A DNA stretch of 61,529 nt from a virus (IMGVR_UViG_3300025632_000015:1-61529), one strand, 5' to 3'. Numbered from the stretch's first letter, positions 14,001 through 57,332 are shown. Numbers and translations are program-made. Notes: a model not told the origin generated them from the letters alone.

Positions 14001-14105
14001 CGCACGGAGATACGCAGACATATGTATAACAATGACATTAGACCACTGCTTCCTAGAGAACACCCATTGTTTGAACCAAGAGAGAAAATAGAGGAGGAGG
14101 AATAA
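11079..14105 (+). CDS. Large hypothetical protein
   Basis: 1008-aa ORF with a GGAGGT SD. Acidic N-terminal half and Lys/Gly/Asn low-complexity linkers. No family recognised. Confidence 0.75.
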   Translation: MSKYAFSESFGEFTDKDTEDAVLTRYKKHVIDHILQHYEIHVNSHNRDNLTSHQLLYYHVYGDYRLVLDDKKPKFVYKTTGYTETNILLGAPIDEYYLNNFLNQEEEGIINGIYDSVKNDGALKYDTEKVDWLNTELQKRGTGTKFNLPSIGTEIVKMHAYGNASDDIKKGLIDEMYALSEFLDSEDNRNEYPALYDEDAIELVNKFLVNPFMDSSEFNGSVSKSIAVLIESFLTNLEYRELYDSYPDEKTNPLPLEKNIFKTLRDIYDIDNDYDTEGAISKIVSTLFAKSTQKYNIDDEVMFSDNLSSAKLTAIADLLEVDQEEIMASEYVITGFSETGGYVLRTVDLVGGGPVPLDLNDSPDDVKIAENDLIKSTTPKFDYDEDSGDVTTTGGKKKKKGGGKVVLEPALIIYQRILLDTFSAIQILCHTNEWARQGGNNAEAKTEAKMRFLSSGVNVYASTQNNNQNKQKGNNNKKGKIKPIHIYDSFPNIAHFDSGSVVGIPPNKDSKAKLGNRGLLDELADWRGFYTLSVLAKARKKSYDRQSMDTFYSSDILLKEIAWMATALSDGSKVLSKKEDPRDLMSQIQYTYVRGVPTDKDGNDLLQQTAVAPKETVFYEVDVPLLKEVIMTYTDVYNKSVIYRAFNTAKNTKDKTITVETDNVKTLVANAFEEHKKAKKAEDEGKPDAEIKAFKDKKSEYLGQAMRQQPNAFRVDQPKGKSGRDEDSYPGIKYLPKGEGGKFHVDVTQIPSNVTGADKIPKDRNKKSRTAGPADAGESIYDTTTITTRAPVKEADLARTIWQSVKTRTTGLFDLEGARPHEFMYLLFEEMNKVLSRSKLIKAPYPEAWFGTNIVDKLITDPMQLGESVEIRFYEEKLAEYIGALEKRYMSNFLIPSVLLTQTQMGRIKYSKNPEKLKMAFMERLAKDSASPQLVTTNYILKPYAITVAIMRGVLQIPEKDRSSFVAQEIDEDMRTEIRRHMYNNDIRPLLPREHPLFEPREKIEEEE

Positions 14106-42400: not shown

Positions 42401-43459
42401 GCAGATAAATTAAATGTTACTGGTGCAACTTACGATACTTCCATTACTAATGGTGTTATTCAACTTGGGGCAATAGGAAACATAAGTGGTGCTTCTAGTT
42501 CTATTCTGTCAATTAATTCATTAGGTTCGGTTGACATTAATTTAGATACAAATGCTAATGATACAGGTAGTATCTTTAGAATAAAAGAAGATAGTGATGT
42601 TTTCTTTCATATGGACAATGATGGTAATGTCGGAATAGGATATACAACCCTTGCCGAGAAACTGCAAGTAGCAGGTAATATCCGAGTCAATAACAATGGT
42701 TCATTAAAGGCGAATGGTAGTGGCTATCTAATACTTGGAAATACTAGTGAAGGTGTTATTAAAGTTCATGGAGATTCAGGTTCATCTATTATAGAAGGTC
42801 ATGGTAACTCCTTAGTTTTACAAACAGTACGTGATAATGACGATATTATATTCAAAGTAAACGATGGTGGCACTGATTCAGATGCTACTGTTGTTGAAGC
42901 CATGAGAATAGTAGGTTCGGATGGTAATGTAGGAATAGGTACTACAAGTCCTGGTTTCCCGTTAGACGTTAATGGTTGGATTGCAACTGCAAATGGAATT
43001 GTCCACACAGGAGATACTAACAACACTATTCAATTTGATACTGATATTCAGAAATTCAACACCGCAGGAACCACAAGACTGACAATTGCGGCTAATGGTA
43101 CAGTTACAGTAGCAGGTGCATTCTTAGCCGCTACTAAATCATTCCTTATTCCTCACCCAACTAAGGAAGGAAAAACCTTGGAACATGGTTCTCTTGAAGG
43201 GCCAGAACATGGTGTATATATTAGAGGAACATTAGAAGGTAATAGTGTAATTGAACTACCCGATTATTGGTTAGGATTAGTAGATGAAGATACTATAACA
43301 GTACAACTTACTGGTAAAGGTAGATTCCAAAGATTATATGTTGATAAGATAGAAGATAATAAAGTGTATGTTGAAAATGAAAAGATGCATGATATTAACT
43401 GTTATTATTTCATACAAGCAGAAAGAAAAGATGTGGACAAACTGGTGGTGGAATACTAA
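39470..43459 (+). CDS. Long fibre/adhesin with GNVGIG repeats and C-terminal chaperone-like domain
   Basis: Starts MANEFRVKNG. Multiple GNVGIG(T) repeats and VGxDDTGxDVKFFGATSG (x2). Ends with a TKSFLIPHP...LEGPEHGVYIRG domain. Confidence 0.8.
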   Translation: MANEFRVKNGIIVSSIATESGNFTIDSAADIVLDAGGTDIIFANAGTNFGKIHDSSSSLRIKVIVADDDFVVAGNDSDGESNFDAFKLDMSAAGAATFSGGIAQAGTISAGTWNGGVIASAYLDADTAQLSGTQTFTGNKTFTGTVTVGADDTGKDVKFFGATSGSYMLWDESTDDLILGGAAKLGIGTASPSSELEVAGNTTGNVQITIDNDNTAGLGTFALQEDGSTTGIFQYRGSTNGTLPNTVRVGSNVAGGSLAFTYAGGTTGMYIKGSDGNVGIGITAPLFPLHLKYTDNRTDPQGSNSSSGAGAIGANAQGGGLYIENASTTDGSFAGITFRTDTADGRIAYQSTGSSLINEGQMSFYCDANDTGGQQLVLEEVLRLTGGGSGAAQAYNSAYVNGRLGIGTSTPSSLLHIHGDMADGKQGILITRDDTSTADTNLLGAIGFDSSDGNIPSKATEASAGIAAYAAEDHGTGDKGGDLVFFTSPIDQNDDTDALERMRIDSQGNVGIGTTSPAAQLHVGSTAYELSSGAYLTGSHQRTAKMVIHADDANTDWDEQEIGLALHNEDPTNNNWSPHIAFTTHEDDDGNPANANPVAVAAISATYNTRVANGWAKGDLVFFTNNAGSGNAERLRITGAGNVGIGTATPSTALQVSGTVTATAFAGALTGNVTGNVSGSAATATTATNANQVNATNDRDLAPEDLDYANDFQVFFTSKEGLEDGSTNGSNYMDAIVLNTWSDASGHDANVLAFDKSTMAIYHYQADQAATNWGTAKQIAYTDSDSTGTATTVTVSNSTANTNFPVVFHDESDGLLDDTGALRYNPSTGTLLVPNLSVAGTTTQVDTVTMQAQNAVVFEGATPDAHETTLTITDPTADRTITLPNASGTVAVSAGTGIDLSAAGAVSVDVSDFMTNGANNRVVTATGTDAMNAEANLTFDGSALQVTGTMTVGVDDTGHDVKFFGATSGVHMEWDQSADKLNVTGATYDTSITNGVIQLGAIGNISGASSSILSINSLGSVDINLDTNANDTGSIFRIKEDSDVFFHMDNDGNVGIGYTTLAEKLQVAGNIRVNNNGSLKANGSGYLILGNTSEGVIKVHGDSGSSIIEGHGNSLVLQTVRDNDDIIFKVNDGGTDSDATVVEAMRIVGSDGNVGIGTTSPGFPLDVNGWIATANGIVHTGDTNNTIQFDTDIQKFNTAGTTRLTIAANGTVTVAGAFLAATKSFLIPHPTKEGKTLEHGSLEGPEHGVYIRGTLEGNSVIELPDYWLGLVDEDTITVQLTGKGRFQRLYVDKIEDNKVYVENEKMHDINCYYFIQAERKDVDKLVVEY

Positions 43460-44214
43460 TGCACTATGGGCCAAAAGTAGTAACAGATTCTCTTATCTTT
43501 AGCTTTGATGCGGGTAATGCAAAGTGTACTGATGCTGATGATGAAGTAACAAGTATGAGAGATAGTGCTATTGTTTCTCATTCTTCTAGGGAAGATAGAG
43601 CAATTACAGGTGCAGGAACAACTGCATCTTTTTCCTTTCCTACAGATACAGGAGCAGTTAAAACAATTGATTTAGGAATAACAGGAAGAAATAGCAGTAC
43701 AGATGCTACTAATTTTGATAATAGATTGGGCTTAGATGATGATATTCTATTTGCTGATGAAGATGCTTGGTCTTGTGAGTTTTGGGCTAAGCCAAGGGCT
43801 GATGCAGTTCACACATTTCTTAGTTTGGCAGGTAGAGGAGCGACAAGTCCGTGGTTCATTTGGCAACATGGTTCTTCAACGTTCTATCCTAGATTCAGAG
43901 ATAATGATGGAGACTATCTAAGAGATAGTTCTAACACTAATTGTTCCGACCCTGATGATTGGCATCAACTTGTATTTACTGCTGATACTAGTAGAAACAT
44001 ATCCTTCTACAAAGATGGGGCTTTATTAGGTGGTTCTGTACAAAGTACCGATACGGCATTAAGAATAAACAGACTCATGGCAGGATATAGTTCTAGTACT
44101 TCTAGATATGGATTTCAAGGTAGTATGCTTTGTGCTAGAGTATATTCTAAAACACTATCTGCCGCAGAAATTTTACAAAATTTTAATGCAACAAGAGGGA
44201 GAGTTGGAATATGA
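43459..44214 (+). CDS. LamG/concanavalin A-like domain protein
   Basis: GPKVVTDSLIFSFDAGN ... WHQLVFT ... RVYSKTLSAAEILQNFNA. Confidence 0.75.
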   Translation: MHYGPKVVTDSLIFSFDAGNAKCTDADDEVTSMRDSAIVSHSSREDRAITGAGTTASFSFPTDTGAVKTIDLGITGRNSSTDATNFDNRLGLDDDILFADEDAWSCEFWAKPRADAVHTFLSLAGRGATSPWFIWQHGSSTFYPRFRDNDGDYLRDSSNTNCSDPDDWHQLVFTADTSRNISFYKDGALLGGSVQSTDTALRINRLMAGYSSSTSRYGFQGSMLCARVYSKTLSAAEILQNFNATRGRVGI

Positions 44215-44342
44215 AGTATGAGATAAATGGTAAAGAATATTCTATAAGGCAATTAAATAATATACTTTCAGGTATTGGTAAACATGTTACAGTTGAATTA
44301 CAAACTGCCGCTTTAGATATAATGGAATCATTGGAGGAATAA
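44211..44342 (+). CDS. Small hypothetical protein (43 aa, not in ORF track)
   Basis: ATGA overlap with the previous stop; fills the gap up to the next SD. Confidence 0.45.
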   Translation: MKYEINGKEYSIRQLNNILSGIGKHVTVELQTAALDIMESLEE

Positions 44343-44344
44343 AT

Positions 44345-45061
44345 ATGGGATTCCACAATGGTGCTAGAGTCGTTGACGATGGTTTGGTTTTCGCTTTGGA
44401 TGCGGGTAATTCCAAGTGCTTCACAAGCGGAGACACTACCGCTACTTGTTTGGTGAGTGGAAGCTCTGTTACAGGTGCTAGTGGCTCTCCCGGTAGTGGA
44501 GCGCACACACCCAACACAGCGAACTTCCCTGCTTACTCTAGCGACAAAGGTGGAGTCTTCAATTTTGCAAATGGCAGAGGAATGAACATAGAGGATGACT
44601 TAGGGGCGCATTCAGCCGTTTCGTGGTGTCTGTGGTTCAACAAGAACAACGGAAGCACCCACTACTTCTTCGATTGTAGGGCTGATGGTGGAGATTGGCA
44701 GTTGTCCAACTATCAAAATAGAAGCATCAATTGGGGAAGTGAAATAGAATACAATCCCGGTGGAACCGCAGGTGATTCTGATTATGTGGCACAACCAACA
44801 ATGTTTGGAGATGTGTGGAACTACCTAGTGGTAACTTCTGATTCAAATGGTGGTAAAATGTATCTTAATGGCGCGGAAGTCTCATTGACTCAATCTTCTT
44901 CTACAAGTGAAACATTTGGCAGGAACATGAGAATAGGAACAAGATACACGACTACAGGCCAATGGACAGGTTACATGGGTTGCATCCAACTATACAAGAA
45001 GGTTCTATCTGCGGCAGAAGTGTTACAGAACTATAATGCACAAAAGGGGAGGTTCGTCTGA
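44345..45061 (+). CDS. LamG/concanavalin A-like domain protein
   Basis: VVDDGLVFALDAGN ... WNYLVVT ... LYKKVLSAAEVLQNYNA. Confidence 0.75.
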   Translation: MGFHNGARVVDDGLVFALDAGNSKCFTSGDTTATCLVSGSSVTGASGSPGSGAHTPNTANFPAYSSDKGGVFNFANGRGMNIEDDLGAHSAVSWCLWFNKNNGSTHYFFDCRADGGDWQLSNYQNRSINWGSEIEYNPGGTAGDSDYVAQPTMFGDVWNYLVVTSDSNGGKMYLNGAEVSLTQSSSTSETFGRNMRIGTRYTTTGQWTGYMGCIQLYKKVLSAAEVLQNYNAQKGRFV

Positions 45062-45774
45062 TGGGTGTAGCAGGTGGTCCCACAATCTCACAAAGTGGGT
45101 TGCAATTAACTTTAGATGCCTCTAATTCAAAGTCATATGGTGGTAGTGGAACAACTTGGTCAGATGTGAGTGGTAATGGCAGGGACTTCACCTTCACCGC
45201 CACACCGACTTACAACTCCAGCAACGCCGCTTCTTCTTTCGACACCATCAGGGCCAATGGGCCTAACGCAGATACATTTGGAATAACGTCTTCTTCCGGT
45301 TATACCATAATATTAGTCGCATTGCAGGACGCCCTCAACAACGAGTCGGCATTCAAGTTCCCTATGGGCGATGGTGCTGGAACTGATGCTAGGGGAATAT
45401 TCGCTCACTGCTCTTGGGGTAATGGTGTAGTCTATTTTGACACGAATGGTTCGACTTCTACGGGTTCTGGCGGGGGTAGGGTGAATACCAGTGGAGATGG
45501 CAACTTCGGCACCGATGATATAACCCACTATGCCTTCACTAAATCAAGTAACGGAGCCACGCAGACCATCTACAAGGATGGGGCAAGTGTCTCTCAAGGT
45601 ACTAACCGTGGTAGTGCGGCAACATTGAGCGCACACCCAGTAACCTTCGGCGGCGATGAGCAATACCTAGATGGATGGGATGCCAAAATGCACTACATAC
45701 TGGTTTACAATCGAGAACTGACCGCAGCAGAGGTTAAACAAATATATGAAAGTATGCGAGGGAGGCTTGACTAA
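45061..45774 (+). CDS. LamG/concanavalin A-like domain protein
   Basis: GLQLTLDASNSKSYGGSGTTWSDVSGNG ... VYNRELTAAEV. Confidence 0.75.
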   Translation: MGVAGGPTISQSGLQLTLDASNSKSYGGSGTTWSDVSGNGRDFTFTATPTYNSSNAASSFDTIRANGPNADTFGITSSSGYTIILVALQDALNNESAFKFPMGDGAGTDARGIFAHCSWGNGVVYFDTNGSTSTGSGGGRVNTSGDGNFGTDDITHYAFTKSSNGATQTIYKDGASVSQGTNRGSAATLSAHPVTFGGDEQYLDGWDAKMHYILVYNRELTAAEVKQIYESMRGRLD

Positions 45775-45775
45775 G

Positions 45776-47725
45776 ATGGCAGACAGCGACAAAGATATCC
45801 TGATCACCCCCAACATAAGCCAGACGGCTCAACCGGAGATCAAGTTCGTCGGAAAGGACAACTCTCCTCTCTACATCAAGGTCCTAGACGACAACAGCCT
45901 GTCCTTCGAGGGCGTTGAGGGACAGATCTTCTCGATCAGCCCGACCATGTCCAGTGGCGATATATTCAGCGTCAGCGACATATCAGGTGTGCAGAGCATG
46001 TCCATAAACGCAGATGGAACTATCTCAATGAATGCCCAAACCAAATCTGTTACTATTGCAAACAACGCAGGTTCTCCGGGTCACTTGACTCTCGCTACAA
46101 ATGAATTGACGGTCGTAGATGGGGATAAGTTGGGTAGGATTGACTTCAAAGCACCCATTGAAGCAAGTGGTACAGACGCGATACTGACAGGAGCATCAAT
46201 TTGGGCCGAAGCAGACGACACGTTTGCAGCCGACAACAACAAAACCGAATTAGTATTCGCAACAGCCGCATCAGAAGCAGCCGCAGAAAAGATGCGATTA
46301 GACTCAACTGGTAATCTGGGTGTAGGTACATCGACCCCATCATTCACATCAGGTATTGGAGTAGAGGTGTCACATGCTACACAAGCCAACTTCCGAGCCA
46401 CTGATAGTAACGGGGCTTCTACTGATTTCGCTACTTCAGGTAATGACACATACATCCTGAACAGACACGCCAGCGGTAAGATATACATCAAGCCGGGTAA
46501 TGGCGACCATAGTATCGAACTAGCCTCTAATGGTCAAGTCAAGTTCAACAACGCATACACATTCCCCACATCGGACGGAAGCAATGGTCAAGTATTACAG
46601 ACAAATGGTAGCGGTGCACTCTCCTTTGCCTCTGCAAGTGGTGGTGCTTCTGATATTGGCGCACTAGATGATGTATTGATGGATGCTAGTGACTTTACTG
46701 ATGGTTTTCTTCTGCAAACTGATAGTGACGGTTCTGCTCCAACAACGGGAACATTAAATGACGCAACAGGTAATATTGGGCTTGGTAAAGACGTGCTTTC
46801 TACATTAACAGCTGGTGACAATAACGTTGCAATAGGATATGAGGCTGGTGCGAGTATCACTGTAGCGTCCAATACGGTCGCAATTGGATATCGAGCTGCT
46901 AGATATCCCACTGGTAATCACAACATAGGGATTGGACTCAATGCTATAAGAGGTGCTGATAGCGGTACGGTAGACGGTCACCAAAACGTAGGAATAGGTG
47001 CAAATTCACTCTATTCTCTCACTGAGGGCCACGACAACGTAGGTATAGGAATAGCTACAGGGACAGCAATCACGACCGGAGATAAAAACGTATTGATTGG
47101 AGTTCAAGCAGGAGATTCAATTGTCGGAGGAGATGAGAACATATGCATAGGTTCGCTTGCTGGGCAGAACATCACCTCCGGTAGTGACAACGTCATAATC
47201 GGTAGCGTGGATGCTCCTAATGCAACTGGGGACCAGCAACTAGTAATAGCTTCCGGTAATGCTGGTGGAGCTACTTGGATTCGAGGCAATAGTGACGGAG
47301 TTGTATTAGGTGCTTTAACACCGCTATTCTTTGAAAAGTCTGGTTTGGATACAAACACAGTTGGTCTTAAAGTACCGATCGCGTTTAATGGCGATGCTAA
47401 CCCTGGTGGTTATTGTATGCCGTATGCTGGTGTAGTCCAGGCAGTAACTTTCATATTTGCTGGTGGTTCTATTGATACGTCGGATAGTAATGCTAATACT
47501 TTTATGCTAAGAAAAAATTCAGCTGATACCACGACGACATTCTCATTTGGTGCTAATGACTTAACTCAAATAGTCACCAACTCACAATACAGAATAGTGG
47601 TAACAGGAAGCGATGTAGGCTTGGAGTTCGACGCGGGTCATACGGTACATCTCAAAAGAACTGTTAGTGGCATAAATTTGCACAATGCAAATGCAATAGT
47701 GTGGGTGAAGTTTAACAGCTTCTGA
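45776..47725 (+). CDS. Fibre/adhesin protein with beta-roll (N.xIG) repeats
   Basis: Starts MADSDKDILITPN after GGAGG. Contains roughly 14-aa NVAIG/NIGIG/NVGIG repeats. Confidence 0.75.
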   Translation: MADSDKDILITPNISQTAQPEIKFVGKDNSPLYIKVLDDNSLSFEGVEGQIFSISPTMSSGDIFSVSDISGVQSMSINADGTISMNAQTKSVTIANNAGSPGHLTLATNELTVVDGDKLGRIDFKAPIEASGTDAILTGASIWAEADDTFAADNNKTELVFATAASEAAAEKMRLDSTGNLGVGTSTPSFTSGIGVEVSHATQANFRATDSNGASTDFATSGNDTYILNRHASGKIYIKPGNGDHSIELASNGQVKFNNAYTFPTSDGSNGQVLQTNGSGALSFASASGGASDIGALDDVLMDASDFTDGFLLQTDSDGSAPTTGTLNDATGNIGLGKDVLSTLTAGDNNVAIGYEAGASITVASNTVAIGYRAARYPTGNHNIGIGLNAIRGADSGTVDGHQNVGIGANSLYSLTEGHDNVGIGIATGTAITTGDKNVLIGVQAGDSIVGGDENICIGSLAGQNITSGSDNVIIGSVDAPNATGDQQLVIASGNAGGATWIRGNSDGVVLGALTPLFFEKSGLDTNTVGLKVPIAFNGDANPGGYCMPYAGVVQAVTFIFAGGSIDTSDSNANTFMLRKNSADTTTTFSFGANDLTQIVTNSQYRIVVTGSDVGLEFDAGHTVHLKRTVSGINLHNANAIVWVKFNSF

Positions 47726-48081: not shown

Positions 48082-48441
48082 ATGCCTGAAGAAGCAGCAC
48101 AAGCAGACGCACAACCAGAACAGCCCACGATAAATATACTGGACCCAGTATATCAAGAGGTTATAGACTTACAATTGACAAGAGGTCAAGCACTCTTTGT
48201 TTACAATTTCTTAGAAACAAATATCCAACCACGAGGAATGGCAATGGTTGAGTTTTCTTTTGACATGATGAAGAGATTCCAGTCTGCATTAGTAGTAGAA
48301 CCAGTTAGTGAACCACAAGTAACGGTTGAAACATCGGAAGCAATAGAAGAAACATCGGAAGCATTTGTTACAAAGAAGACAACAGATGGTGCAAAAGTGT
48401 TTGAAAATAACGTAGGAATTAGAGAACTGATGGAGGAATAA
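48082..48441 (+). CDS. Acidic hypothetical protein
   Basis: 119 aa, directly upstream of the chaperonin, with an ETSEA duplication. Confidence 0.65.
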   Translation: MPEEAAQADAQPEQPTINILDPVYQEVIDLQLTRGQALFVYNFLETNIQPRGMAMVEFSFDMMKRFQSALVVEPVSEPQVTVETSEAIEETSEAFVTKKTTDGAKVFENNVGIRELMEE

Positions 48442-48443
48442 GT

Positions 48444-49997
48444 ATGGCAACAGTAGTTGACGCAAAACAAAATGCATCGGTAGTAACAGCACACGATGTC
48501 AACATACAAGTAGCAATACAATTAGCTGACCTAGTAAAATCAACACTAGGACCATATGGAATGGACAAAGAGATGGTGGACCCTGCTGGCGTAGTTGTTA
48601 TGACCAATGATGGTGCAACAATTCTTAGAGAAACAAAGTTACATCACCCTACTGCTAGAATCATTACAGAAGTAGCACGTACACAAGAAGAAAACTGCTT
48701 TGATGGTACAACAAGTTCTGTAGTAATAACTGGAGAATTAATGTCCAAAGCAAAAGAACTGCTTAACTTAAAAATTCACCCTACACGTATTGCTAAGGGC
48801 TATACTTTAGCAAACAAAAAGGCACAGGTTCTCTTGGAAGAGATTGGTGTAGATATTACTGACGATTTACTCCTTAGTGTCGGCAAGACAGCAATGACTG
48901 GTAAAAGTGCAGAAACAGAGCAAGACCAATTAGCACAAATTGCTTTAGACGTAATTAAAGCAACTCCTCTTGAGAACATCAATATTGTAAAGAGACCCAA
49001 TGGCAAAGTCAAAGAGTCTCTTGCTATATCCGGTTTGCTTATTGACAGAGAAAAGATGGACCACAATATGCCAGACTCTATCAAAGATGCAAAGATTGCT
49101 TTGATTAGTGTTGACGTAACTCTACCAGAGTTTGCACAACAGCTACAGATTCAAGTAACTGACAACAATGCTGTAAAAGAGTTTATTGAAAGTAGAAAGG
49201 CACAATTGCAAGAAATCGCAGAGACCATCTTAGCAACTGGAGCCAATGTTATTCTTTGCAAAAGAGACATTGACCCATTTGTTGTAGAAATATTTGCAGA
49301 GAAAGGAGTTTACGCAGCAAGAAGAGTTGCTATGAGTGACATGGAAGCTGTAGCAAAAGCAGGCAAAGGAAGAATGGTATCTGCAATAGACGGGCTTAAA
49401 AAATCAGACCTTGCTAGTGTGGGATTATTAGAAGAAATTGCTGTTGGTGAGAAGCCACTGATTAAACTTACTGACATAGCAACTGCTGGATCAGTATCAG
49501 TATTACTAAGAGCACCGACACAACATTCGGTTGATGAAATAGGTCGAGCATTCGATGATGCAATTGGTGTCATCAGTGTTGCAATGGACCATGGAAAGGT
49601 TCTTGCAGGTGGTGGTGCACCTTACTTACACCTATCTAAAAACCTACGAGAATACGCTGCTACTGTTAGCGGGCGAGAGCAAATGGCTGTTGAGGCATAT
49701 GCACAAGCACTGGAAGTAATTCCTGCGGCTTTGGCAGAAAACAGTGGGCTAGATCCACTAGATACCCTTATCCGCCTTCGCCAGCTCCATGCATCTGCAG
49801 CAGGCCACTCCCACGGAGTGGACGTGGAGAACGGAGGAGGAGTAAATATGCTAGAACAAGGCGTCATCGAACCACTCAGCGTAGTATCACAAGCACTAGA
49901 TAGTGCTACTGATATCGCATCTCAGTTGCTTCGCATCGATAATATTATCGAAATGCAAAAAGGACCGGAGATCGGAGAAGATGGATACAAATACTAA
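48444..49997 (+). CDS. ths: Group II chaperonin (thermosome subunit)
   Basis: STLGPYGMDK, TNDGATIL, DGTTS, TAMTGK, AGGGA and LLRIDNII motifs; 517 aa. Confidence 0.95.
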   Translation: MATVVDAKQNASVVTAHDVNIQVAIQLADLVKSTLGPYGMDKEMVDPAGVVVMTNDGATILRETKLHHPTARIITEVARTQEENCFDGTTSSVVITGELMSKAKELLNLKIHPTRIAKGYTLANKKAQVLLEEIGVDITDDLLLSVGKTAMTGKSAETEQDQLAQIALDVIKATPLENINIVKRPNGKVKESLAISGLLIDREKMDHNMPDSIKDAKIALISVDVTLPEFAQQLQIQVTDNNAVKEFIESRKAQLQEIAETILATGANVILCKRDIDPFVVEIFAEKGVYAARRVAMSDMEAVAKAGKGRMVSAIDGLKKSDLASVGLLEEIAVGEKPLIKLTDIATAGSVSVLLRAPTQHSVDEIGRAFDDAIGVISVAMDHGKVLAGGGAPYLHLSKNLREYAATVSGREQMAVEAYAQALEVIPAALAENSGLDPLDTLIRLRQLHASAAGHSHGVDVENGGGVNMLEQGVIEPLSVVSQALDSATDIASQLLRIDNIIEMQKGPEIGEDGYKY

Positions 49998-50127
49998 ACA
50001 AAAAGTGAATGCAGCACTAGTTGCACTGAAAGAAACTGGCGTTAGTTATATTCTAATGGTACAAGACGAAACTGGCGTTGCTATATTTAGCAACGATAAG
50101 ACCGACCGTCTGTACATCATAGATTAA
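49981..50127 (+). CDS. Small hypothetical protein
   Basis: ATG at 49981 follows GGAG and fills the gap before 50140. Confidence 0.45.
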   Translation: MDTNTKQKVNAALVALKETGVSYILMVQDETGVAIFSNDKTDRLYIID

Positions 50128-50139
50128 GGAGGAAATAAT

Positions 50140-50871
50140 ATGCCAATAGACCCAAGTAGAAGCCCGCTGACAGACGCAATGTTTTCTGGAACAGGTACAC
50201 AACAGTTCCAAGAGATGTCAAATGATGATATTGTTCAATTGCAGAAAGAACAAGAAAACAGACTGATTGGATCTATGATGATTCAGTCCATCTTCCTTGC
50301 ATTGGCATTGATGTTATACGAAAGCTGGTCATGGGGTAAGTTTGACCAAGTGTGGCAATCTGCATTACTATACGGTATGCTTGCCTTCACATTTCAAGCA
50401 TCACTTTACTTACTTTACAGGTCAATGTTTGAAGACTCTACAAACTACCGCCGCCAGATTAAGCGCATGAAGTCTAAAAACAAGCGTCGAATGGCGCAAA
50501 TAAAGTACGAAGTAGATAAGCAGCGTACAGAATGGATGCTAGATCAGCAAGTACAACAATTCCAATCAAATGCCATGATGGCACAAGCAGATGGAGTAAT
50601 GACTCCGCAAGAACAACAAATATTGCAACAACAATATCAACAAGTGCAACAGATGGATCAGCAAGTTCCAGGTGTAAATGCTAACGTACAATATGACTTA
50701 GATGCACTAGCAAAGCAATTGGGATTAGATAGGCACAGAATCGGGCCAATACCAATGGGACCGGCTTTAACTCCTACACCACTAACAGTTACACAAGCCC
50801 CTTTAGGACAATTCCAGGTTCAAACACCGGTGCAGAGCACATTGGATCTGGATCCGACAGCGACCAACTAG
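50140..50871 (+). CDS. 2-TM membrane protein with basic coiled coil and Gln-rich tail
   Basis: Two TM segments, then RRQIKRMKSKNKRR and a Q-rich region; AGGAGG SD. Confidence 0.75.
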   Translation: MPIDPSRSPLTDAMFSGTGTQQFQEMSNDDIVQLQKEQENRLIGSMMIQSIFLALALMLYESWSWGKFDQVWQSALLYGMLAFTFQASLYLLYRSMFEDSTNYRRQIKRMKSKNKRRMAQIKYEVDKQRTEWMLDQQVQQFQSNAMMAQADGVMTPQEQQILQQQYQQVQQMDQQVPGVNANVQYDLDALAKQLGLDRHRIGPIPMGPALTPTPLTVTQAPLGQFQVQTPVQSTLDLDPTATN

Positions 50872-50943
50872 TACAATGTATGGCAATAACAGATATGGGA
50901 ACACAATGCGAGAGATTAACAAGGTCGGGATGGTGTCACCAAC

Positions 50944-51180
50944 ATGGGACTAATATTTCGCGATGAGAGAGACGACCAACAAGAAGCATTGATGCAAACA
51001 ACTGCCGTCGGTTTGACTTGGCAGTATCGCTATCTTACAATGAAGTGGATGGTTTATACTGTTTTATCTGGAATAGGTTCTGCTGCTGCTATGGCAATTA
51101 CAGACTATACTATTTACAAAGTGACCGACTACAATGGACTACTGGACTGGGCATTAACTGCAATCACAGGGGGCTTATAA
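50944..51180 (+). CDS. Small membrane protein
   Basis: Hydrophobic WMVYTVLSGIGSAAAMAI segment; immediately upstream of the GTPase. Confidence 0.7.
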   Translation: MGLIFRDERDDQQEALMQTTAVGLTWQYRYLTMKWMVYTVLSGIGSAAAMAITDYTIYKVTDYNGLLDWALTAITGGL

Positions 51181-51181
51181 T

Positions 51182-51901
51182 ATGGGCTCAGCAGAAATCA
51201 TCTTAGCACATGGTGTATGGAAAGTTATGAGTGGTGTACTAACACTAGTCCCATATGAAATAAGTGTGATAGGTGCTAGTCAAAGTGGTAAGACTACACT
51301 GGATGCTCAGTTAACAACTAGAGGAGAGATAAGAAAACTATACGACAAAGATCGTACTCACCATGAAAAGAACTGGCTAGGCAGATACAAGTTGCCAGAT
51401 GCAACAAAAAAGCGAATACATTCAGACGGTTTAGCAAAAACAATCGTTTCTAGAGACTTGGGTGGACATATAGAGTATCATTCGAGTTGGTTAAGAGATA
51501 TGATTGACCGTAATTGTAGTAGTATAGTATTAGTAATAGATAATAGACATCTAATAGATACTAATAATGTAGATAATCAAACCGCACTAGGCTATTTATT
51601 AACAGCACTGAGCGATAAAAATAACATTCCTAAAGGACTCACATGGAGAGGATGGTGGCGAGCGAAGAAGTACTATCCTAAGAGAGTGGTCGTACTTGCC
51701 AACAAAGCAGACGAGTGGATGACTGACGCTGACCATGTGACATGGGAGAAAGGATTTATCGCTCGACACAAAATATTTGATGTCTTTAGAGAAGACTTCT
51801 ACCGCTTGCAAGCCATGAATGTTCCTGTATACATGGATGCTATTAGCGCAAAATACGGATGGAATGTACAGGATGCTTTAGTAAAGGGGTTAGCAATATG
51901 A
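51182..51901 (+). CDS. Small GTPase, Arf/Sar1-like
   Basis: G1 GASQSGKTT, G3 DLGGH, G4 NKAD, G5 SAK, and a hydrophobic/amphipathic N-terminal extension. Confidence 0.85.
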   Translation: MGSAEIILAHGVWKVMSGVLTLVPYEISVIGASQSGKTTLDAQLTTRGEIRKLYDKDRTHHEKNWLGRYKLPDATKKRIHSDGLAKTIVSRDLGGHIEYHSSWLRDMIDRNCSSIVLVIDNRHLIDTNNVDNQTALGYLLTALSDKNNIPKGLTWRGWWRAKKYYPKRVVVLANKADEWMTDADHVTWEKGFIARHKIFDVFREDFYRLQAMNVPVYMDAISAKYGWNVQDALVKGLAI

Positions 51902-52644
51902 CAAACAGAGAAATATTAGATATGATGCAGAATCCTGCTTTAGATGCAGGTGGATATAACGACGTAGTGACACAAGTAGACTTCAGAATGTCTTCAAATC
52001 CGGATCCCAAAAAAGCCAGAAGATCGAATATCAAGTCTGCGATTAAAGCACTCAAGGCAACAAAAAGAAGTTTACTGTCTCCTAAAAGATTTTTTAGAGG
52101 TAGATACACGCATAAGAATCCACACGAGTGTGTTGTTGACGGCATAGATTGCATGAAAGCAGATTACGGTGATTTATTTGACCAATATTTCAGAGATCCA
52201 ATAACATTGGAGATAGAGGCTTTCAGGCCAACATCAGGAGTCTTACCAACTAGTGGTAGAAAACTACCAGGGACATACTGCCCACAGCACATGATGTTAT
52301 ATCATAGTTTAATGGAATGGATTGAGCAAGAAGAAAAAGAAGCGGATCCTGGATTCTTTAGCAAGATGGCAAAGAAGGGTGTTGCTTTCGTACCGATAGT
52401 TAGGCAACAAAAAGAAGCAGAACACCCATTAATTGTAAAATGGACACCAATTATTCAAGAAGCCATGAAAGATGGTATACAAATAGTGCATTATAAAAAC
52501 CCAATAACTAATGAAAATGATTTAACTATGCTAGTATTTGACAATAGACTCCTAAAAAACACTGCACCCCGACAAAATACCATGAAATCAATGGACATGG
52601 CAGAATATTACAAGGTTTTAGAAGAAATGCAGAGGCGAGGATGA
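51898..52644 (+). CDS. Hypothetical protein with Cys/His cluster
   Basis: ATG at 51898 overlaps the GTPase stop (ATGA). Contains CVVDGIDC ... YCPQH. Confidence 0.7.
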   Translation: MTNREILDMMQNPALDAGGYNDVVTQVDFRMSSNPDPKKARRSNIKSAIKALKATKRSLLSPKRFFRGRYTHKNPHECVVDGIDCMKADYGDLFDQYFRDPITLEIEAFRPTSGVLPTSGRKLPGTYCPQHMMLYHSLMEWIEQEEKEADPGFFSKMAKKGVAFVPIVRQQKEAEHPLIVKWTPIIQEAMKDGIQIVHYKNPITNENDLTMLVFDNRLLKNTAPRQNTMKSMDMAEYYKVLEEMQRRG

Positions 52645-52683
52645 TGAGAAACGTTCAATACAAAAGACTAGGGTGGCTCTAAT

Positions 52684-53418
52684 ATGGGATTGTTCGGAAG
52701 AAGCAGCACAACCTCTCCAGTGGCGCTAATACCGCCAGGTGTGGGAGGCGGTATATCAAAAGATCAAATGAATATGTTCGCCCAAGCGGCGAATAACTCG
52801 GGACTGACTGGAATGGGCATGGGAATGCTAGACCAAGTAACTGGTGGAGGAGTCAATACAGAAGAAATAGAACTTATGTATCATCTGATGGCTCGTCATC
52901 CTAACGAAGTAGATTTATTCTTCGTTGGGAACCCAGACTTCTTGTCTGGACTCGCAGAATTGATATCCACCATTATGAAAAGAGAATTGTACCTATGGTT
53001 TAACTCTGCGGCAATAGCAGCAACAGTAGACCCTGCCAAGGCATCAGAATTAGGTTATTCAACAATAACTCAAGAGAATGTAGACGGCATCTTAGGTAAG
53101 ATGTACTCTCCGGATGCTGGGCAACAGAGAATCAATGCAGCAGACGCTGAAGCAATTGGTTTAATCAACCAACATAAATATGGTATGCAAATGGGCGGTA
53201 TGCAAGCTGGTATGGATCAGCAGCAACAAATGTTCCAGCAACAAATGTACCAACAACAAATGATGCAGCAGCAACAGCAACCAGGACTAAGTGGCGCACT
53301 AGGTAGTTTCGGTTCGACTCTACTAAGAGGCTCACTGGGTTTACCACCAGCACCTAACTACAATCAACAATATGCACCACAACAAGGTATGTACCAGCAA
53401 CCAGGCGCAATGCAGTGA
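52684..53418 (+). CDS. Gln/Met/Gly-rich hypothetical protein
   Basis: Starts MGLFG; low-complexity Q-rich C-terminus. Confidence 0.7.
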   Translation: MGLFGRSSTTSPVALIPPGVGGGISKDQMNMFAQAANNSGLTGMGMGMLDQVTGGGVNTEEIELMYHLMARHPNEVDLFFVGNPDFLSGLAELISTIMKRELYLWFNSAAIAATVDPAKASELGYSTITQENVDGILGKMYSPDAGQQRINAADAEAIGLINQHKYGMQMGGMQAGMDQQQQMFQQQMYQQQMMQQQQQPGLSGALGSFGSTLLRGSLGLPPAPNYNQQYAPQQGMYQQPGAMQ

Positions 53419-53461
53419 TTAAGCGAACCGCTTAAGTTATAGTCCCCCTTGGGATACATGT

Positions 53462-53827
53462 ATGGTAGCTAGTCGTAACCAACTAAATATGATCTCGCGA
53501 GAGTTTGGAAGCACTCCAAATGGCTCGTTACCTGCATACGGTGCTGTGGGAGAAATGGCTCAGTACCATAATCCTAGAGCACACCTAAAATATAGGAAAA
53601 CAACCGCATTAGGTGAAAAACAAGGACTGTCTGGTATATTTCCAACCGAAGCATTAGGTGGTGCAGGCGTTATTGCGTTAGGTATGATATACGTAGGGCT
53701 TAATTTTCCTTACGCAGAAGGAACCATCGACTGGGTTAAGAAAAGAATCAATCAACCAAAACAAACTACACAAGCAGCCTTGCTGGGTGTAGGAACTTTG
53801 ATATTAATAAATAGAGCAAACAGGTGA
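53462..53827 (+). CDS. Small 2-TM membrane protein
   Basis: Two TM segments after GLSG. A CTTAAG box lies about 30 nt upstream. Confidence 0.65.
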   Translation: MVASRNQLNMISREFGSTPNGSLPAYGAVGEMAQYHNPRAHLKYRKTTALGEKQGLSGIFPTEALGGAGVIALGMIYVGLNFPYAEGTIDWVKKRINQPKQTTQAALLGVGTLILINRANR

Positions 53828-54438
53828 TTAAGGTGAGCAGTTTCCAGAGATCTAATTTATACGCTAGTGAAGATTTTGGTGGAGAACCAGACACCATGGA
53901 TATGTCCGGATTTTTAGGCTCTCCGCCTCCAGTACAACCACAAGAAAGAGCAAGAGCACCACGAACACCACCGATTTCTGAAAGACCACGACAACAACAA
54001 GCACCATCCAGTAACGCATCCGGTGTAAAACAACCAAACATGGGTTATACTGTCAAAAACCCAATCCCAGTACTAACAGACGAGTTTGAAGATCCCAAGT
54101 TCTATCACGCTCTAAGTCCTTTTTGGGCAGACGATGATTCACTAGGCTCTCCTAAAATACCAGCGATTAGTAAAGTAGCAGGGGTTACAATATTCACACT
54201 GGCTGGTATGTATGCTCTTGGAACACGCAAAACAGGTGGCTCGCCGTATGCTAAAGCACTATGCATAGCAGGTGCCGGAATGTACGTACACCCAATGTTA
54301 GGTGTAAATCACGGACTACTAAAAGTAATACCAGGAGAAGACCACTGGATAGCAAAATACCCTCGATACGGAGCAATAGGTATGGTACACTTAGGTGGAG
54401 CATACGGTTTCCAGAAAGCAATAAGGAGGCAGTTTTAG
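53824..54438 (+). CDS. Membrane protein with Pro-rich N-terminus
   Basis: Three hydrophobic segments in the C-terminal half. Confidence 0.65.
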   Translation: MIKVSSFQRSNLYASEDFGGEPDTMDMSGFLGSPPPVQPQERARAPRTPPISERPRQQQAPSSNASGVKQPNMGYTVKNPIPVLTDEFEDPKFYHALSPFWADDDSLGSPKIPAISKVAGVTIFTLAGMYALGTRKTGGSPYAKALCIAGAGMYVHPMLGVNHGLLKVIPGEDHWIAKYPRYGAIGMVHLGGAYGFQKAIRRQF

Positions 54439-56415
54439 ATGAGTGGTTGGTTTGGTACTTCAAATAGGGGGACAAACAACCCTCTTGATGGCATAGCAGC
54501 AGGTCATGCTGCTCGCAGAAATATGCAAAAGCAGAGGTACAGCCCTATGGGTAGAACGACCATCGACCAGATGGCTGCGAAAAACATGAGCCGTTCAAAT
54601 AGTCAAGAATACAAGGGATTCAATCTAGTATCTACTTTTAACAACAACGCTCATACAAGGGATTTAAACAAGAAATACCAAGACTCTTGGAATACTAGAG
54701 CAATTAAAAAAGGAATGACGTCTTTGACGTCAAAGACGTCTTTTAGAGCATCCGGTAGCTCAAAAGGTGAGTCAGTTAATAAAGTTAAGAACCAAATAGA
54801 TAAATCTCTTGGTCAAGAAAAGAAGATGTCAATGTTTACCGATGCTAGTTCAGAATCAATTAGAGAAGTAACCATACCTAAAACAGACCCTGGAGAAGTA
54901 GCAAGATTCAACAGAGCCGCAGCAGCGGCAGAAAAAGCAAGACAGTTCAAACCTGTTCCAATGCCTGCAGACTTCAATACTGGTATATACACAGTACGTG
55001 CAGTATATGGTGAACGCAATAAAACATATACTGTGAGTGTTATTGAAGGAACTGTAGTCAAAGAAGTCAAGACATTCAATCAAAATCAAGGAATGGCGGC
55101 AAAGGTTCTACATCAACAATTTAAGACTCTGGCTGCGAAAAAGACAAATTACGACGGTCAGAAACCACTTTCTGTCTCTAAAACCAACTATAATGTCGAA
55201 CTACAAGTCACAACAGCAGCAGCAGGACTCAGTGGGTTCTTTAACGGTGTAATGAATATGTTTGGTCTAGGTAGAACGACAATAGACCAAATGGCTGCAA
55301 AAAACATGAGAAACGCAGCAAGTCCAAGTCAATCATCAGAAAGAGCAAGATTTGCTAGAAGAGCAGACAGTGGAATAGATAGACAACGAGCAACACAAGC
55401 AGCAACACAAGCAGCAATGCAAAGTCAATCATCAGAAAGAGCAAGATTTTCTAGAAGAGCAGAGTTTGAAGCTCAGCAAAGGATGAAAGCTGCAGCAACA
55501 CAAGCAACACAAGCAGGAGAAGGAGCAAGATTTGCTAGAAGAGCAGAGTTTGAAGCTCAGCAAAGAACGAAAGCTGCAGCAACACAAGCAACACAAGCAA
55601 CACAAGCAGCAATGCAAAGTCAATCATCAGAACGAGCAAGATTTGCTAGAAGAGCAGACAGTGGTATAGACCAACAAAGACTGATAGATGCAAAAGCACA
55701 GCAAGCAGTTATCAATCAAAAAATGCTCGACAAGCAGAAATTCGAAGAAGCAAGTAGAGCATCCGTTGTCATAGCATCAAAGAGACCAGAAGTAACAGCA
55801 AATTGGTCAGCCATGCCAGCAAAATCATTTAAAGTTATCACATCTAGAAAAGATGGTACAGTTGTAAAAGAATCTGGTGTAATTAGTGATTATAAGTCAG
55901 CAGCTGAAGCATTCCAAACAGAAGTTTCTACCATAGAAAACACACCCGATTTCTACGACCAAGATGCACCATTAGTGCCAGAAGTACCTATATCAACTGG
56001 TGACGGTGGAGATATAACAAGTAATTATCAAGATCCAATAATCGCACAAGCATCGGCTGCTCAACAAGCAGCGGCACAGGCGGCTGCTGAACAAGCGGCT
56101 GAAGCAGAAAGATTTGCTCAACAAGCAGCGGCACAGGCGGCTGCTGAACAAGCGGCTGAAGCAGAAAGATTTGCTAGAAGAGCAGAGCTTGAAGCCCAGC
56201 AAAGAGCAGCGGCACAGACAGTATCAGAAAACTACAATGAATTAGTTCAATCTACAGAACCTGAACCGATTTACAGACCACTGAACCTTGAAGACTATCC
56301 TTGGATATTGAAGCAACAAGCAAGTACAGCATTAGCACCTGCTGCCGCACATAGCCATTTGGGATTGGTACTAGTTGGACTTGCTGGATTAGCTTACGTA
56401 ACCAACAGGAAGTAA
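54439..56415 (+). CDS. Repeat-rich Ala/Gln/Arg protein with C-terminal membrane anchor
   Basis: ERARFARRA-type repeats, a duplicated GRTTIDQMAAKNM, and a C-terminal LGLVLVGLAGLAYV segment. Confidence 0.75.
   Translation: MSGWFGTSNRGTNNPLDGIAAGHAARRNMQKQRYSPMGRTTIDQMAAKNMSRSNSQEYKGFNLVSTFNNNAHTRDLNKKYQDSWNTRAIKKGMTSLTSKTSFRASGSSKGESVNKVKNQIDKSLGQEKKMSMFTDASSESIREVTIPKTDPGEVARFNRAAAAAEKARQFKPVPMPADFNTGIYTVRAVYGERNKTYTVSVIEGTVVKEVKTFNQNQGMAAKVLHQQFKTLAAKKTNYDGQKPLSVSKTNYNVELQVTTAAAGLSGFFNGVMNMFGLGRTTIDQMAAKNMRNAASPSQSSERARFARRADSGIDRQRATQAATQAAMQSQSSERARFSRRAEFEAQQRMKAAATQATQAGEGARFARRAEFEAQQRTKAAATQATQATQAAMQSQSSERARFARRADSGIDQQRLIDAKAQQAVINQKMLDKQKFEEASRASVVIASKRPEVTANWSAMPAKSFKVITSRKDGTVVKESGVISDYKSAAEAFQTEVSTIENTPDFYDQDAPLVPEVPISTGDGGDITSNYQDPIIAQASAAQQAAAQAAAEQAAEAERFAQQAAAQAAAEQAAEAERFARRAELEAQQRAAAQTVSENYNELVQSTEPEPIYRPLNLEDYPWILKQQASTALAPAAAHSHLGLVLVGLAGLAYVTNRK
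55325..55680 (+). repeat. Imperfect coding repeats (SQSSERARFARRA / AATQ)
   Basis: Four copies of GAGCAAGATTT(G/T)CTAGAAGAGCAGA, with GCAACACAA microrepeats. Confidence 0.85.
56058..56176 (+). repeat. 57-nt coding tandem duplication (AQQAAAQAAAEQAAEAERF)
   Basis: GCTCAACAAGCAGCGGCACAGGCGGCTGCTGAACAAGCGGCTGAAGCAGAAAGATTT occurs twice. Confidence 0.9.
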
Positions 56416-56419
56416 TTAT

Positions 56420-56971
56420 ATGGTTGAATTTGTATGGAGATTAAAACCCAATTGGCCAGGAAGCGGTCAGCCAGATCTTTGGAATAGAACCTCTCCTGTA
56501 AGTAGCGTAGATGCTGATGTTCTTCAAACAAATATTGCTAGGTTAGAGCAAATTGCCATATCATTATCGATAGTAGAAAAAAATATTGTGAATTTTAAAA
56601 ATAGCATAAATGCATTCAATCAAAGAATGAGATTCTCAAGAGATACCAGTGAATTAAGGCGACTTACAGAGGGAAAAAATATTACTGCTAGAAGTTTAGA
56701 GAGTGCTGAGACTGAAAGGGATGTGCTTAAATTACAAGAAAAAACAGCACTGAAAATCGTTAACCAAAATAGAGATGAAATGGCTAAGTTCTACACAGCC
56801 GGACCATATATGAGTGAAGACAAAGCGTCACTTATGACTATCATTGGTATGGTTTGTGTTGCCGGTGGTGCAGCGTATCTTATCAGATCACCAAGTACAT
56901 CACTTCCATTTCGTCGTTCATTTCGTCGTTCAATGAAACAATTGTCGCCTGTTACGGCGGCATTTAGATAG
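56420..56971 (+). CDS. Coiled-coil protein with C-terminal TM
   Basis: Heptad-like region followed by LMTIIGMVCVAGGAAYLI. Confidence 0.65.
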   Translation: MVEFVWRLKPNWPGSGQPDLWNRTSPVSSVDADVLQTNIARLEQIAISLSIVEKNIVNFKNSINAFNQRMRFSRDTSELRRLTEGKNITARSLESAETERDVLKLQEKTALKIVNQNRDEMAKFYTAGPYMSEDKASLMTIIGMVCVAGGAAYLIRSPSTSLPFRRSFRRSMKQLSPVTAAFR

Positions 56972-57002
56972 ATTTAAGTAGAAAATAATGTGAGGAATTA
57001 AT

Positions 57003-57332
57003 ATGCCAAAGAAAGGATCACACCTGAATAAGCACAAAGTAACACCGAAACCTAAACTCGCAGCAATAATTGGAAAGAAGCCAGTTTCATACGGTCAGGC
57101 AGCAAGCGCACTATGGAATGATAAGCAAATGGGAATCAAGAAACTCGAGTTAAATGGCGAGGCTGGAGATGGTCAAACTCTGAAGGTTGGCGGTAAAACC
57201 TACAAAGGCGGTCAAATCATTCATACTGGCGAAAACGATGTTTGGAAAGCATTTGCTAATGGTAAGAAGAAGATTGCCATGACCCAACTCGGTACACTAG
57301 TCAAGCAACATAGCACCGCTCCAAAGAAGTGA
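57003..57332 (+). CDS. SWIB/MDM2-like domain protein
   Basis: TPKPKLAAIIGKKPVSYGQAASALW...IKK...II...KAFANGKKKIAMTQLGTLVKQH follows the stand-alone SWIB pattern. Confidence 0.65.
   Translation: MPKKGSHLNKHKVTPKPKLAAIIGKKPVSYGQAASALWNDKQMGIKKLELNGEAGDGQTLKVGGKTYKGGQIIHTGENDVWKAFANGKKKIAMTQLGTLVKQHSTAPKK

Follow-up and report, generated by a model that had tools for sequence, protein, structure and literature searches.

Why would a virus that is probably archaeal encode a small GTPase with a predicted Arf-like fold in one tight row of genes with two predicted membrane proteins? The question is raised by IMGVR_UViG_3300025632_000015:1-61529, a 61.5-kb virus record with an estimated completeness of 44%, whose whole length of 61,529 nucleotides is called the window here. 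Positions 50140-53418 hold five genes, and the reading that we tentatively prefer, at somewhat less than even confidence, is that they are the window's copy of a conserved, virus-specific module that would be switched by GTP, targeted to membranes and active late in infection, remodelling or rupturing the membrane of the host.

The five open reading frames (ORFs) of this region are real, co-directional and tightly packed, and they lie within a single co-directional, tightly packed gene block on the plus strand (48082-57332). They are arranged as follows.

50140..50871, plus strand: protein A, 243 residues (ORF, Kyte-Doolittle hydropathy, BLASTP homologues, alignment)
50944..51180, plus strand: protein B, 78 residues (ORF, hydropathy, positional equivalents)
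51182..51901, plus strand: a divergent small GTPase, predicted to be Arf-like, 239 residues (weak Pfam matches, AlphaFold2 model, nearest folds)
51898..52644, plus strand: the Cys/His protein, 248 residues from the ATG at 51898 (homologue starts)
52684..53418, plus strand: a protein rich in Gln, Met and Gly (the Q/M protein), 244 residues (ORF, composition, position downstream of the GTPase)

Spacing within the module is 1 nt between B and the GTPase, -4 nt between the GTPase and the Cys/His gene, and 39 nt before the Q/M gene. The Cys/His ORF is listed from 51859; its homologues point to 51898 as the start, where the ATG and the TGA of the GTPase gene overlap as ATGA, and the same -4 overlap is found in loci L002-L007. 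An earlier note on this DNA had described five adjacent genes, among them a protein with two transmembrane (TM) segments, a small TM protein and a Q/M-rich protein, and had proposed that the Cys/His gene is translationally coupled to the GTPase. ORFs, hydropathy and composition agree with that description, and the ATGA overlap at 51898 bears out the coupling.

Relatives of the module were analysed in two sets from IMG/VR: 87 loci (L001-L087) of clades 1 and 2, of which 80 entered the positional and feature analysis, and the best 80 of 140 matches (L101-L180) for clade 3, the clade of P0106. BLASTP with the window proteins matched the GTPase and the Cys/His protein in all 87 loci of the first set, protein A in 68, and protein B and the Q/M protein in 7 each. 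By position, a Cys/His homologue lies directly downstream of the GTPase in 80/80 loci of clades 1 and 2, and the second ORF downstream has 150-300 residues with at least 15% Gln plus Met, again in 80/80. Directly upstream, a TM protein of 55-110 residues was found in 69 of the 76 evaluable loci, the seven misses being mostly the less hydrophobic B homologues of the window's clade, and next upstream stands a protein of 120-300 residues with one or more N-terminal TM segments (72/72 evaluable loci). The order recurs in clade 3, where the Cys protein is directly downstream in 72/73 loci, a Q/M homologue is present in 73/73, and A-like and B-like proteins are present in 76/76 each, the latter found by BLASTP to the clade's own B. 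Identity of the GTPases to that of the window is 44-63% within its own clade, about 31-36% in the P0099 clade (loci shown) and 27.6-34.2% in clade 3. The outer flanks vary by clade (DNA methylase/GP88, a helix-turn-helix protein, an HMGL-like gene, giant ORFs, a thermosome gene, head genes), and a tblastn comparison of the other clades' outer neighbours with the window gave nothing beyond one match at E 0.023. Since the gene order is kept and the flanks differ, the five genes make up a conserved block that travels as one. At least 167 IMG/VR loci from three clades keep this order, a count that overstates independence because many loci are near-identical, so that the three clades are the independent observations. 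The earlier note had expected its proposal to fail if the neighbours were not conserved with the GTPase; they are conserved with it across these loci and all three deep clades.

What kind of GTPase stands at the centre of this unit? The window protein has the G motifs G31xxxxGKT38, T59, D92LGGH96, W103, N174KAD177 and S222AK224, whose conservation was read from an alignment of 31 family members and counted in a census of 163 unique near-full-length members.

51272..51295, plus strand: G1 (P-loop), GASQSGKT, residues 31-38 (31-member alignment)
51353..51364, plus strand: switch-I candidate R58-T59-H60-H61 with the G2 Thr (invariant in the 31-member alignment)
51455..51490, plus strand: G3 and switch II, DLGGHIEYHSSW, residues 92-103 (alignment and census)
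51701..51712, plus strand: G4, NKAD, residues 174-177 (alignment and census)
51845..51853, plus strand: G5, SAK, residues 222-224 (31-member alignment)

Residues G31, G36, K37, T59, D92, G95, H96, W103, N174-D177 and A223 are invariant in the alignment, and T38 and S222 are kept in at least 90% of its members. In the census the [RK]T.?H motif of the switch-I candidate is present in 158 members, the middle of G3 is GG in 156, the Trp at +11 is found in 162 and NKxD in 160; the residue after the GG is His in 91 members, Gln in 48, Glu in 13, Asp in 8, Asn in 2 and Ala in 1. The G motifs, which the earlier note had reported as a full set in the window protein, are thus conserved family-wide and not by chance. 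By its G1-G5 motifs the protein is a TRAFAC-class small GTPase that looks functional, and GTP binding is predicted.

The family comprises 94 clusters at 90% identity, all of about 240 residues. A profile search of 1.84 billion representative proteins returned just 77 matches at E<=1e-3; the full-length matches examined have the architecture of the GTPase family, and many others are short fragments. In a scan of 185,579 species genomes, one per prokaryotic species, only two contigs of metagenome-assembled genomes (MAGs) were found, both resembling viral contigs, and PDB sequence searches with the single protein and with the profile gave nothing past P-loop-level or chance matches. Judged by these searches, the GTPase belongs to a virus-only family. 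In Pfam the window protein has sub-threshold matches to GTP_EFTU (E 1e-3) and SRPRB (15.1 bits, cut-off 25) and none to PF00025 Arf at E<=1; over the 31 members GTP_EFTU is matched by 23, SRPRB by 19 (best E 4.5e-6), MMR_HSR1 by 19 and Arf by 15 (best E 0.0047). PF00025 matches also occur in 13 of 14 control genomes, so the weak Arf matches are unspecific, and in the MAG carrying a homologue PF00025 gave nothing at E<=0.01.

Some members depart from the common form. The GTPases P0107 and P0161 carry Cys-rich insertions (...YCYKCKEVGGGCGCE... and ...YCTQCGKTSCFH...), and a related-locus search with the outliers P0101 and P0107 returned no loci. P0139 (228 residues) consists of the middle part of a GTPase without the G5 end, joined to a Cys/His N-terminus of the P0099 clade, and may be a natural deletion or fusion, or an assembly artefact. 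No fused GTPase-Cys/His forms of at least 420 residues were found, which is weak evidence.

The AlphaFold2 model of the GTPase has a mean predicted local distance difference test score (pLDDT) of 71.7, with good quality from residue 100 onward and poor quality at residues 1-23, 46-60 and 78-89. Foldseek with this model returned small GTPases of every family, without discrimination. VIA-align against 48,161 PDB representatives gave Arf6 (Z 16.1 and 15.6), Sar1 (15.4), an Asgard Rag-like protein (14.8), Arl2 (14.7), Arl13B (14.4) and SRbeta (14.2). When the top 1000 Foldseek chains were re-ranked, ranks 1-44 were all of the Arf/Arl/ArfR family (Z 16.5-14.5), among them Arl6 (16.5), Arf6 (16.3), Arf1 (16.2) and Asgard ArfR (15.4 and 15.2), and the first other family was represented by Rab5a at rank 45 (Z 14.4). 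The Arf-family matches have a root-mean-square deviation of about 2.5-2.8 A over about 160 residues, with a margin to other families of only about 2 Z. The ESM Atlas listed viral clusters first and then, as the nearest named ones, bacterial clusters annotated Arf/SRPRB. The predicted fold is nearest to the Arf family (Arf, Arl and Sar1).

Two further features of the GTPase may bear on membrane contact.

51182..51253, plus strand: N-terminal amphipathic helix, residues 1-24, directly before beta1 (hydrophobic moment, AlphaFold2)
51605..51682, plus strand: polybasic/aromatic insertion before beta5, residues 142-167, ...LTWRGWWRAKKYYPK (member count, AlphaFold2)

The amphipathic N-terminal extension had also been noticed before, and it recurs throughout the family: the segment of 23-33 residues reaches a best 18-residue hydrophobic moment of 0.24-0.54 in every aligned member, His10 is invariant in the 31-member alignment, and AlphaFold2 places a helix at residues 3-20 with low confidence. 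Because it is amphipathic and has charged residues in many members, the segment is not a TM anchor. The insertion has on average 8.1 Lys or Arg and 1.2 Asp or Glu per 26 residues (39 members, one row mis-anchored), Lys and Arg make up 31% of the loop before beta5 as against a background of 15.5%, and the blocks spanning residues 141-170 have pLDDT 84-89.

How far does the likeness to known GTPases go? The viral G3, DxGG followed by Gln or His and with Trp eleven residues on, presumably resembles that of Arf and Sar1. The Arf family and Asgard ArfR offer the nearest predicted fold, and like Arf proteins the viral GTPase has a predicted amphipathic helix before its G domain, a feature that, together with the interswitch toggle, counts as an Arf-family hallmark in bioRxiv 10.1101/2024.02.28.582541. 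Unlike Arf proteins, it lies below the Pfam Arf and SRPRB cutoffs and has no sequence-level link to cellular GTPases, is about 60 residues longer than Arf chains (239 vs 160-180), has a longer switch I and interswitch besides the insertion before beta5 and a SAK-like G5, and is encoded by a virus that is probably archaeal. The earlier note had drawn a parallel with Sar1 on the strength of the His in G3. The broader part of it holds, with the Arf family as nearest fold and Sar1 at most about 1 Z below the best match; an identity as Sar1 was rejected, since His occupies the position in only 91/163 members (Gln in 48, others in 24) and Sar1 reached Z 15.4 as against 16.1-16.5 for Arf6 and Arl6. 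Because the viral family alternates between His and Gln, the His is not a Sar1 signature. The signal recognition particle receptor subunit SRbeta (PF09439) was likewise rejected, with 15.1 bits against a cut-off of 25, an N-terminal segment that is amphipathic and not TM, and a structural Z of 14.2.

The earlier note had also pointed to ArvA. This small GTPase drives vesicle formation in Haloferax (PMC10927574), and the ArvA-ArvB-ArvC system (OapABC) of Haloferax and other archaea resembles the module in that an archaeal-world GTPase with an amphipathic N-terminal helix shares an operon with a Cys-rich (Zn-ribbon) protein. For the comparison, ArvA was represented by the GTPase gene upstream of OapB/ArvB (PF09846) from five loci. 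With hhalign the viral family aligned to these five homologues over 21 P-loop columns only (probability 77%; BLASTP E 0.079), the G3 of ArvA differs (DTPG), the Cys/His protein matched ArvC with a probability of 0.2%, and Pfam recognised no OapB-like protein in the module. Membership of the ArvA family was therefore rejected, the alignment being limited to the P-loop and ArvB- or ArvC-like partners being absent. A further comparison is the mimivirus Rab (PDB 5xc5), which is also a virus-encoded Ras-superfamily GTPase and matches the model at Z 13.6; it is Rab-like and of eukaryotic-host origin, whereas the module GTPase is predicted to be Arf-like and comes from a prokaryotic virus, with partners of its own and no detectable cellular source.

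The partner proteins have to be considered with the GTPase. Protein A has TM-like segments at residues 40-61 and 74-92 (Kyte-Doolittle), which would form a hairpin, preceded by an N-terminal region and followed by a basic stretch and then a Gln-rich C-terminal region that is probably helical (38 Gln in the protein), with 50% hydrophobic residues at heptad positions a/d as against 35% overall in a crude count. Alignment of A-type proteins, which range from 143 to 272 residues, shows that the TM1-loop-TM2-'FEDS..RR' architecture is kept across clades. Protein B has one borderline hydrophobic segment at residues 35-53 (maximum 19-residue Kyte-Doolittle mean 1.38), its one predicted TM segment, after a conserved extreme N-terminus (MGLIF...) and an acidic segment. 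The Cys/His protein contains 5 Cys and 6 His and no TM-like segment, and it consists of a very basic N-terminal helix, a putative CCCH metal site and an alpha/beta C-terminal part.

52129..52305, plus strand: putative metal-binding residues C78, C85, C128 and H136 of the Cys/His protein (26-member alignment)

Of these residues the three Cys are invariant and H136 is kept in at least 90% of the 26 aligned members, so that metal (Zn) binding is probable from the sequences. The Cys/His family has 65 clusters. Its AlphaFold2 model (pLDDT 78.4) matched no solved fold, with a best VIA Z of 4.4, no Foldseek match at E<=0.001 and none in the ESM Atlas; by hhalign (probability 94.3%, E 9.6e-8) the core of the Cys/His protein and the clade-3 Cys protein are homologous, the 84 aligned columns taking in the basic helix and the GTYC..H element. 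The homologues P0202, P0208, P0227 and P0232 carry a Cys-rich insertion, ...SPGCPNCGHGKG.... The Q/M protein of the window (31 Gln, 20 Met and 32 Gly in 244 residues) has an MGLFG N-terminus, low-complexity regions, a central hydrophobic helix, a ...SITQENID... block and a Gly-rich C-terminus, and the Q/M proteins of other loci have the MGLFG-type N-terminus, the central hydrophobic helix and an '...ITQENID...' block in common with it. PHROGs, NCBIfam and PADLOC gave no informative family for any module protein, and no partner matched Pfam or NCBIfam above cutoff, so that no Arf guanine nucleotide exchange factor, GTPase-activating protein or coat domain was recognised. Complex prediction for the GTPase and the Cys/His protein, with alignments supplied, scored 0.00 and is evidence for neither side.

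Which kind of virus carries the module? The following genes lie upstream of it.

43459-47725 of the window, upstream of the module: three tandem Laminin_G_3 (concanavalin-like) paralogues, then a 659-residue protein (Pfam, PHROG)
48444-49997, upstream of the module: group II chaperonin, a thermosome subunit (Pfam Cpn60_TCP1, E 3.4e-138)

The 659-residue protein matches PHROG tail-spike and virion structural families (E 8e-23); together with the LamG paralogues it is probably the host-recognition part of a tail. The clade-3 module has a major head protein (phrog_24667, E 1e-24) immediately upstream, in 70/70 evaluable loci, and of the related records of about 100 kb with the module, all that were searched (4/4) encode a family B DNA polymerase. 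For magroviruses of Marine Group II archaea, PMC5434244 and PMC11706807 describe thermosome genes, LamG-like proteins and an archaeal-type replisome, and because these features fit, the virus is probably head-tailed, marine, archaeal and magrovirus-like. In the GenBank phage collection, tblastn with the thermosome, the window GTPase and that of the P0099 clade gave no match, and no named relative in culture emerged. A head-tailed virion can do without lipid, which makes the internal lipid vesicle unlikely that the earlier note had offered as the product of budding; the tail-spike protein in the window and the major head protein beside the clade-3 module point to a head-tailed virus instead. 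Production of a viral envelope is likewise less likely. Contigs from marine RNA libraries (four runs, two studies) match the module together with its flanks, in pieces and at 95% identity or more, and short ones bridge B and the GTPase, the Cys/His and Q/M genes, and the Q/M gene and the next ORF; they indicate presence only, as DNA may be their source.

We therefore return to the reading of a GTP-switched, membrane-acting module. Its steps would be as follows. In its GTP form the GTPase would expose the N-terminal helix and, with the basic loop, attach to the host's cytoplasmic membrane from inside the cell. The integral membrane proteins A and B, whose tails would be cytoplasmic by the positive-inside rule, would set the site of attachment as a receptor or exchange factor, comparable to Sec12 for Sar1. 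The coupled Cys/His protein would be an effector or a regulator of the GTPase, and the Q/M protein a recruited, self-associating component. The membrane would then be remodelled or ruptured locally and in a timed manner late in infection, which would serve egress or a membrane-bound assembly site. Remodelling or rupture is favoured because the module stands among late and structural genes in two of three clades and the virion would be lipid-free; egress specifically, within this reading, is doubtful. Coat formation by COPII is initiated by Sar1 with the membrane-anchored exchange factor Sec12 and the Zn-finger-bearing GTPase-activating protein Sec23/24. The module follows the logic of that parts list, with a GTPase with a predicted amphipathic helix, membrane partners, a partner of Cys/His metal type and a low-complexity protein that may self-associate; unlike those of COPII, its partners are without detectable homology in Pfam, NCBIfam and structure searches, and the likeness is one of analogy only.

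Phage holin cassettes are the other known arrangement to which the module can be compared, since they too have small membrane proteins clustered beside late or structural genes. We know of no GTPase in holin-type lysis cassettes. Protein A (143-272 residues) exceeds typical holins, and there is no endolysin; no holin was matched in Pfam, PHROG or NCBIfam and no cell-wall hydrolase at the module, a negative that does not count for holins because they are too diverse. A highly charged C-terminal domain with TM segments, as in the two-TM protein A, is described for holins in the review PMC10791045.

Several points weigh against a membrane-acting switch of this kind. The putative catalytic position is neither His nor Gln in 24/163 members. 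The GTPase does not reach the gathering scores of the Arf and SRPRB families in Pfam, and neither the PDB searches nor those of 1.84 billion proteins reached a cellular GTPase. Switch I and the interswitch (residues 46-60 and 78-89) have pLDDT below 50, so that an Arf-type toggle cannot be read from the model. Nucleic acid rather than lipid could be the ligand of the polybasic loop, and the position of the clade-3 module inside a head-gene cluster fits morphogenesis as well as egress. Known lysis, holin and defence families were not matched in Pfam, PHROGs, NCBIfam or PADLOC, the number of loci overstates their independence, and we infer the function of the module from its anatomy alone.

Would the module rather form vesicles? 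That would be the vesiculation idea of the earlier note, minus the viral envelope. Budding or tubulation of the host membrane, to yield extracellular vesicles or a replication or assembly compartment, is unlikely in our estimate, although the Arf-like predicted fold with its amphipathic helix, the conservation of the membrane partners with the GTPase and the precedent of ArvA in Haloferax (PMC10927574) speak for it. Among the genomes sampled, OapB/ArvB (PF09846) was found in 74/151 from the phylum to which the MAG with a related viral contig belongs and in 0/41 from that MAG's order, so that the host lineage may lack an ArvABC system of its own. Pfam, NCBIfam and hhalign revealed no coat-like, ESCRT-like or ArvB/ArvC-like protein in the module, however; the GTPase is not a relative of ArvA, and head-tailed virions need no lipid.

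The same late context suits an accessory of morphogenesis or packaging, in which the GTPase would be a switch or chaperone for capsid or tail assembly or for DNA handling, membrane association would be secondary, and the basic loop of the GTPase and the Cys/His protein's basic helix would be binding sites for nucleic acid or structural proteins. The clade-3 module is flanked by the major head protein and by other genes of the structural region (70/70 evaluable), that of the window follows the tail-spike/LamG genes and the thermosome, and polybasic segments are present in both proteins. Nevertheless, two integral membrane proteins belong invariably to the unit, no similarity to known head, tail or packaging families was seen, and BLASTP found the thermosome near the module in just 12/87 loci of clades 1 and 2, and we consider this explanation quite unlikely. 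A cassette for host takeover, superinfection exclusion or counter-defence at the cell envelope, unrelated to release, appears very unlikely: it would agree with the cassette-like behaviour of the module, which is kept intact while its flanks differ among the three clades, and with the many membrane proteins among its products, but the module is present in all three sampled clades, like a core set rather than a variable accessory, and its context is late or structural. A known defence system was rejected, as PADLOC, applied to nine window proteins and P0099, gave nothing apart from a weak CARF-labelled match on the GTPase (E 0.0022). An acquired cellular Sar1, Arf or ArvA gene that mimics a host trafficking factor is highly improbable, for the DLGGH of G3 with Trp at +11 and the structural match to Sar1 (Z 15.4, 22% identity) are set against only 77 profile matches (E<=1e-3) in 1.84e9 representatives with no flood of cellular proteins, two virus-like MAG contigs in 185,579 species genomes, an hhalign match to ArvA limited to the P-loop, no Pfam Arf match at E<=1 in the window protein and a chain about 60 residues longer than Arf.

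Of the readings weighed, the membrane-acting, GTP-switched module is the one that we carry forward. The main players in the egress of head-tailed archaeal viruses are completely uncharacterised according to the review PMC10791045, and the module is a concrete, cloneable egress candidate to test. A literature search did not find magroviruses and a GTPase together, in main texts only; supplementary annotation tables may list these genes. We regard the module as a previously undescribed candidate for action on the host membrane, in which an Arf-like switch of a new virus-specific family would work with new partners. With this family, Arf-like GTPases that have amphipathic helices would also be known from viruses of non-Asgard archaea, which bears on the origin of GTPase-driven membrane remodelling. 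That abundant marine head-tailed archaeal viruses carry an Arf-type remodelling machine of their own, made up of a GTPase switch, membrane receptors, a Zn-binding regulator and a self-associating Q/M-rich component, for virion release or vesicle formation, is rather doubtful; if true, no egress system would have been identified before it in tailed viruses of archaea, and it would be the first Arf-like vesiculation or rupture device from a virus of prokaryotes, and it would mean either independent evolution or a very deep branch from the eukaryotic and Asgard Arf family.

Other genes of the window and its relatives were noted in passing. Very large ORFs of 1008, 1384, 1728 and 1329 residues occupy 11079-23411 and 39470-43459, and those of 1008 and 1329 residues are without a Pfam match. 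Genes for a C-5 cytosine DNA methylase, a GP88-family protein and an HMGL-like protein of pyruvate carboxyltransferase type adjoin the module in P0099-clade relatives (L008 1895-4353; L012 9941-10789). Elsewhere in the window, and directly after the module, lie the following.

9116-10537 of the window: a protein of 473 residues with a HAD-type acid phosphatase or PNKP-phosphatase-like domain (Acid_phosphat_B, E 5.9e-14)
53462..56415, plus strand: three more tightly packed ORFs (121, 204 and 658 residues), each with a TM-like segment (ORF, Kyte-Doolittle)

The three ORFs adjoin the module, and their membership in it is uncertain. They are not conserved beyond the nearest relatives, the first (121 residues) having a homologue only in L001, plus one weak match at E 0.023. 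The 658-residue protein (54439-56415) is rich in Gln and Ala, has a C-terminal TM-like anchor and gave no family match in Pfam, PHROGs or NCBIfam; its gene contains tandem repeats of 84 nt x 2.0 (55434-55599) and 57 nt x 2.1 (56058-56175), and the protein has a recurring SSERARFARRA-type motif and a duplicated GRTTIDQMAAKNM segment.

Short aromatic N-termini are alike in otherwise unrelated proteins of the region, namely MGLIF in protein B (50944-50958), MGLFG in the Q/M protein (52684-52698) and MSGWFG in the 658-residue protein (54439-54456). Across L001-L087 the Q/M position begins with MGLFG, MVWPF or MAWW and the B position with MGWLFKTP, MGRIFKTP or M(A)WPFNT, and ArvA homologues likewise begin with MGLF or MGIL. 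The common aromatic N-terminus could be a docking or membrane-insertion motif.

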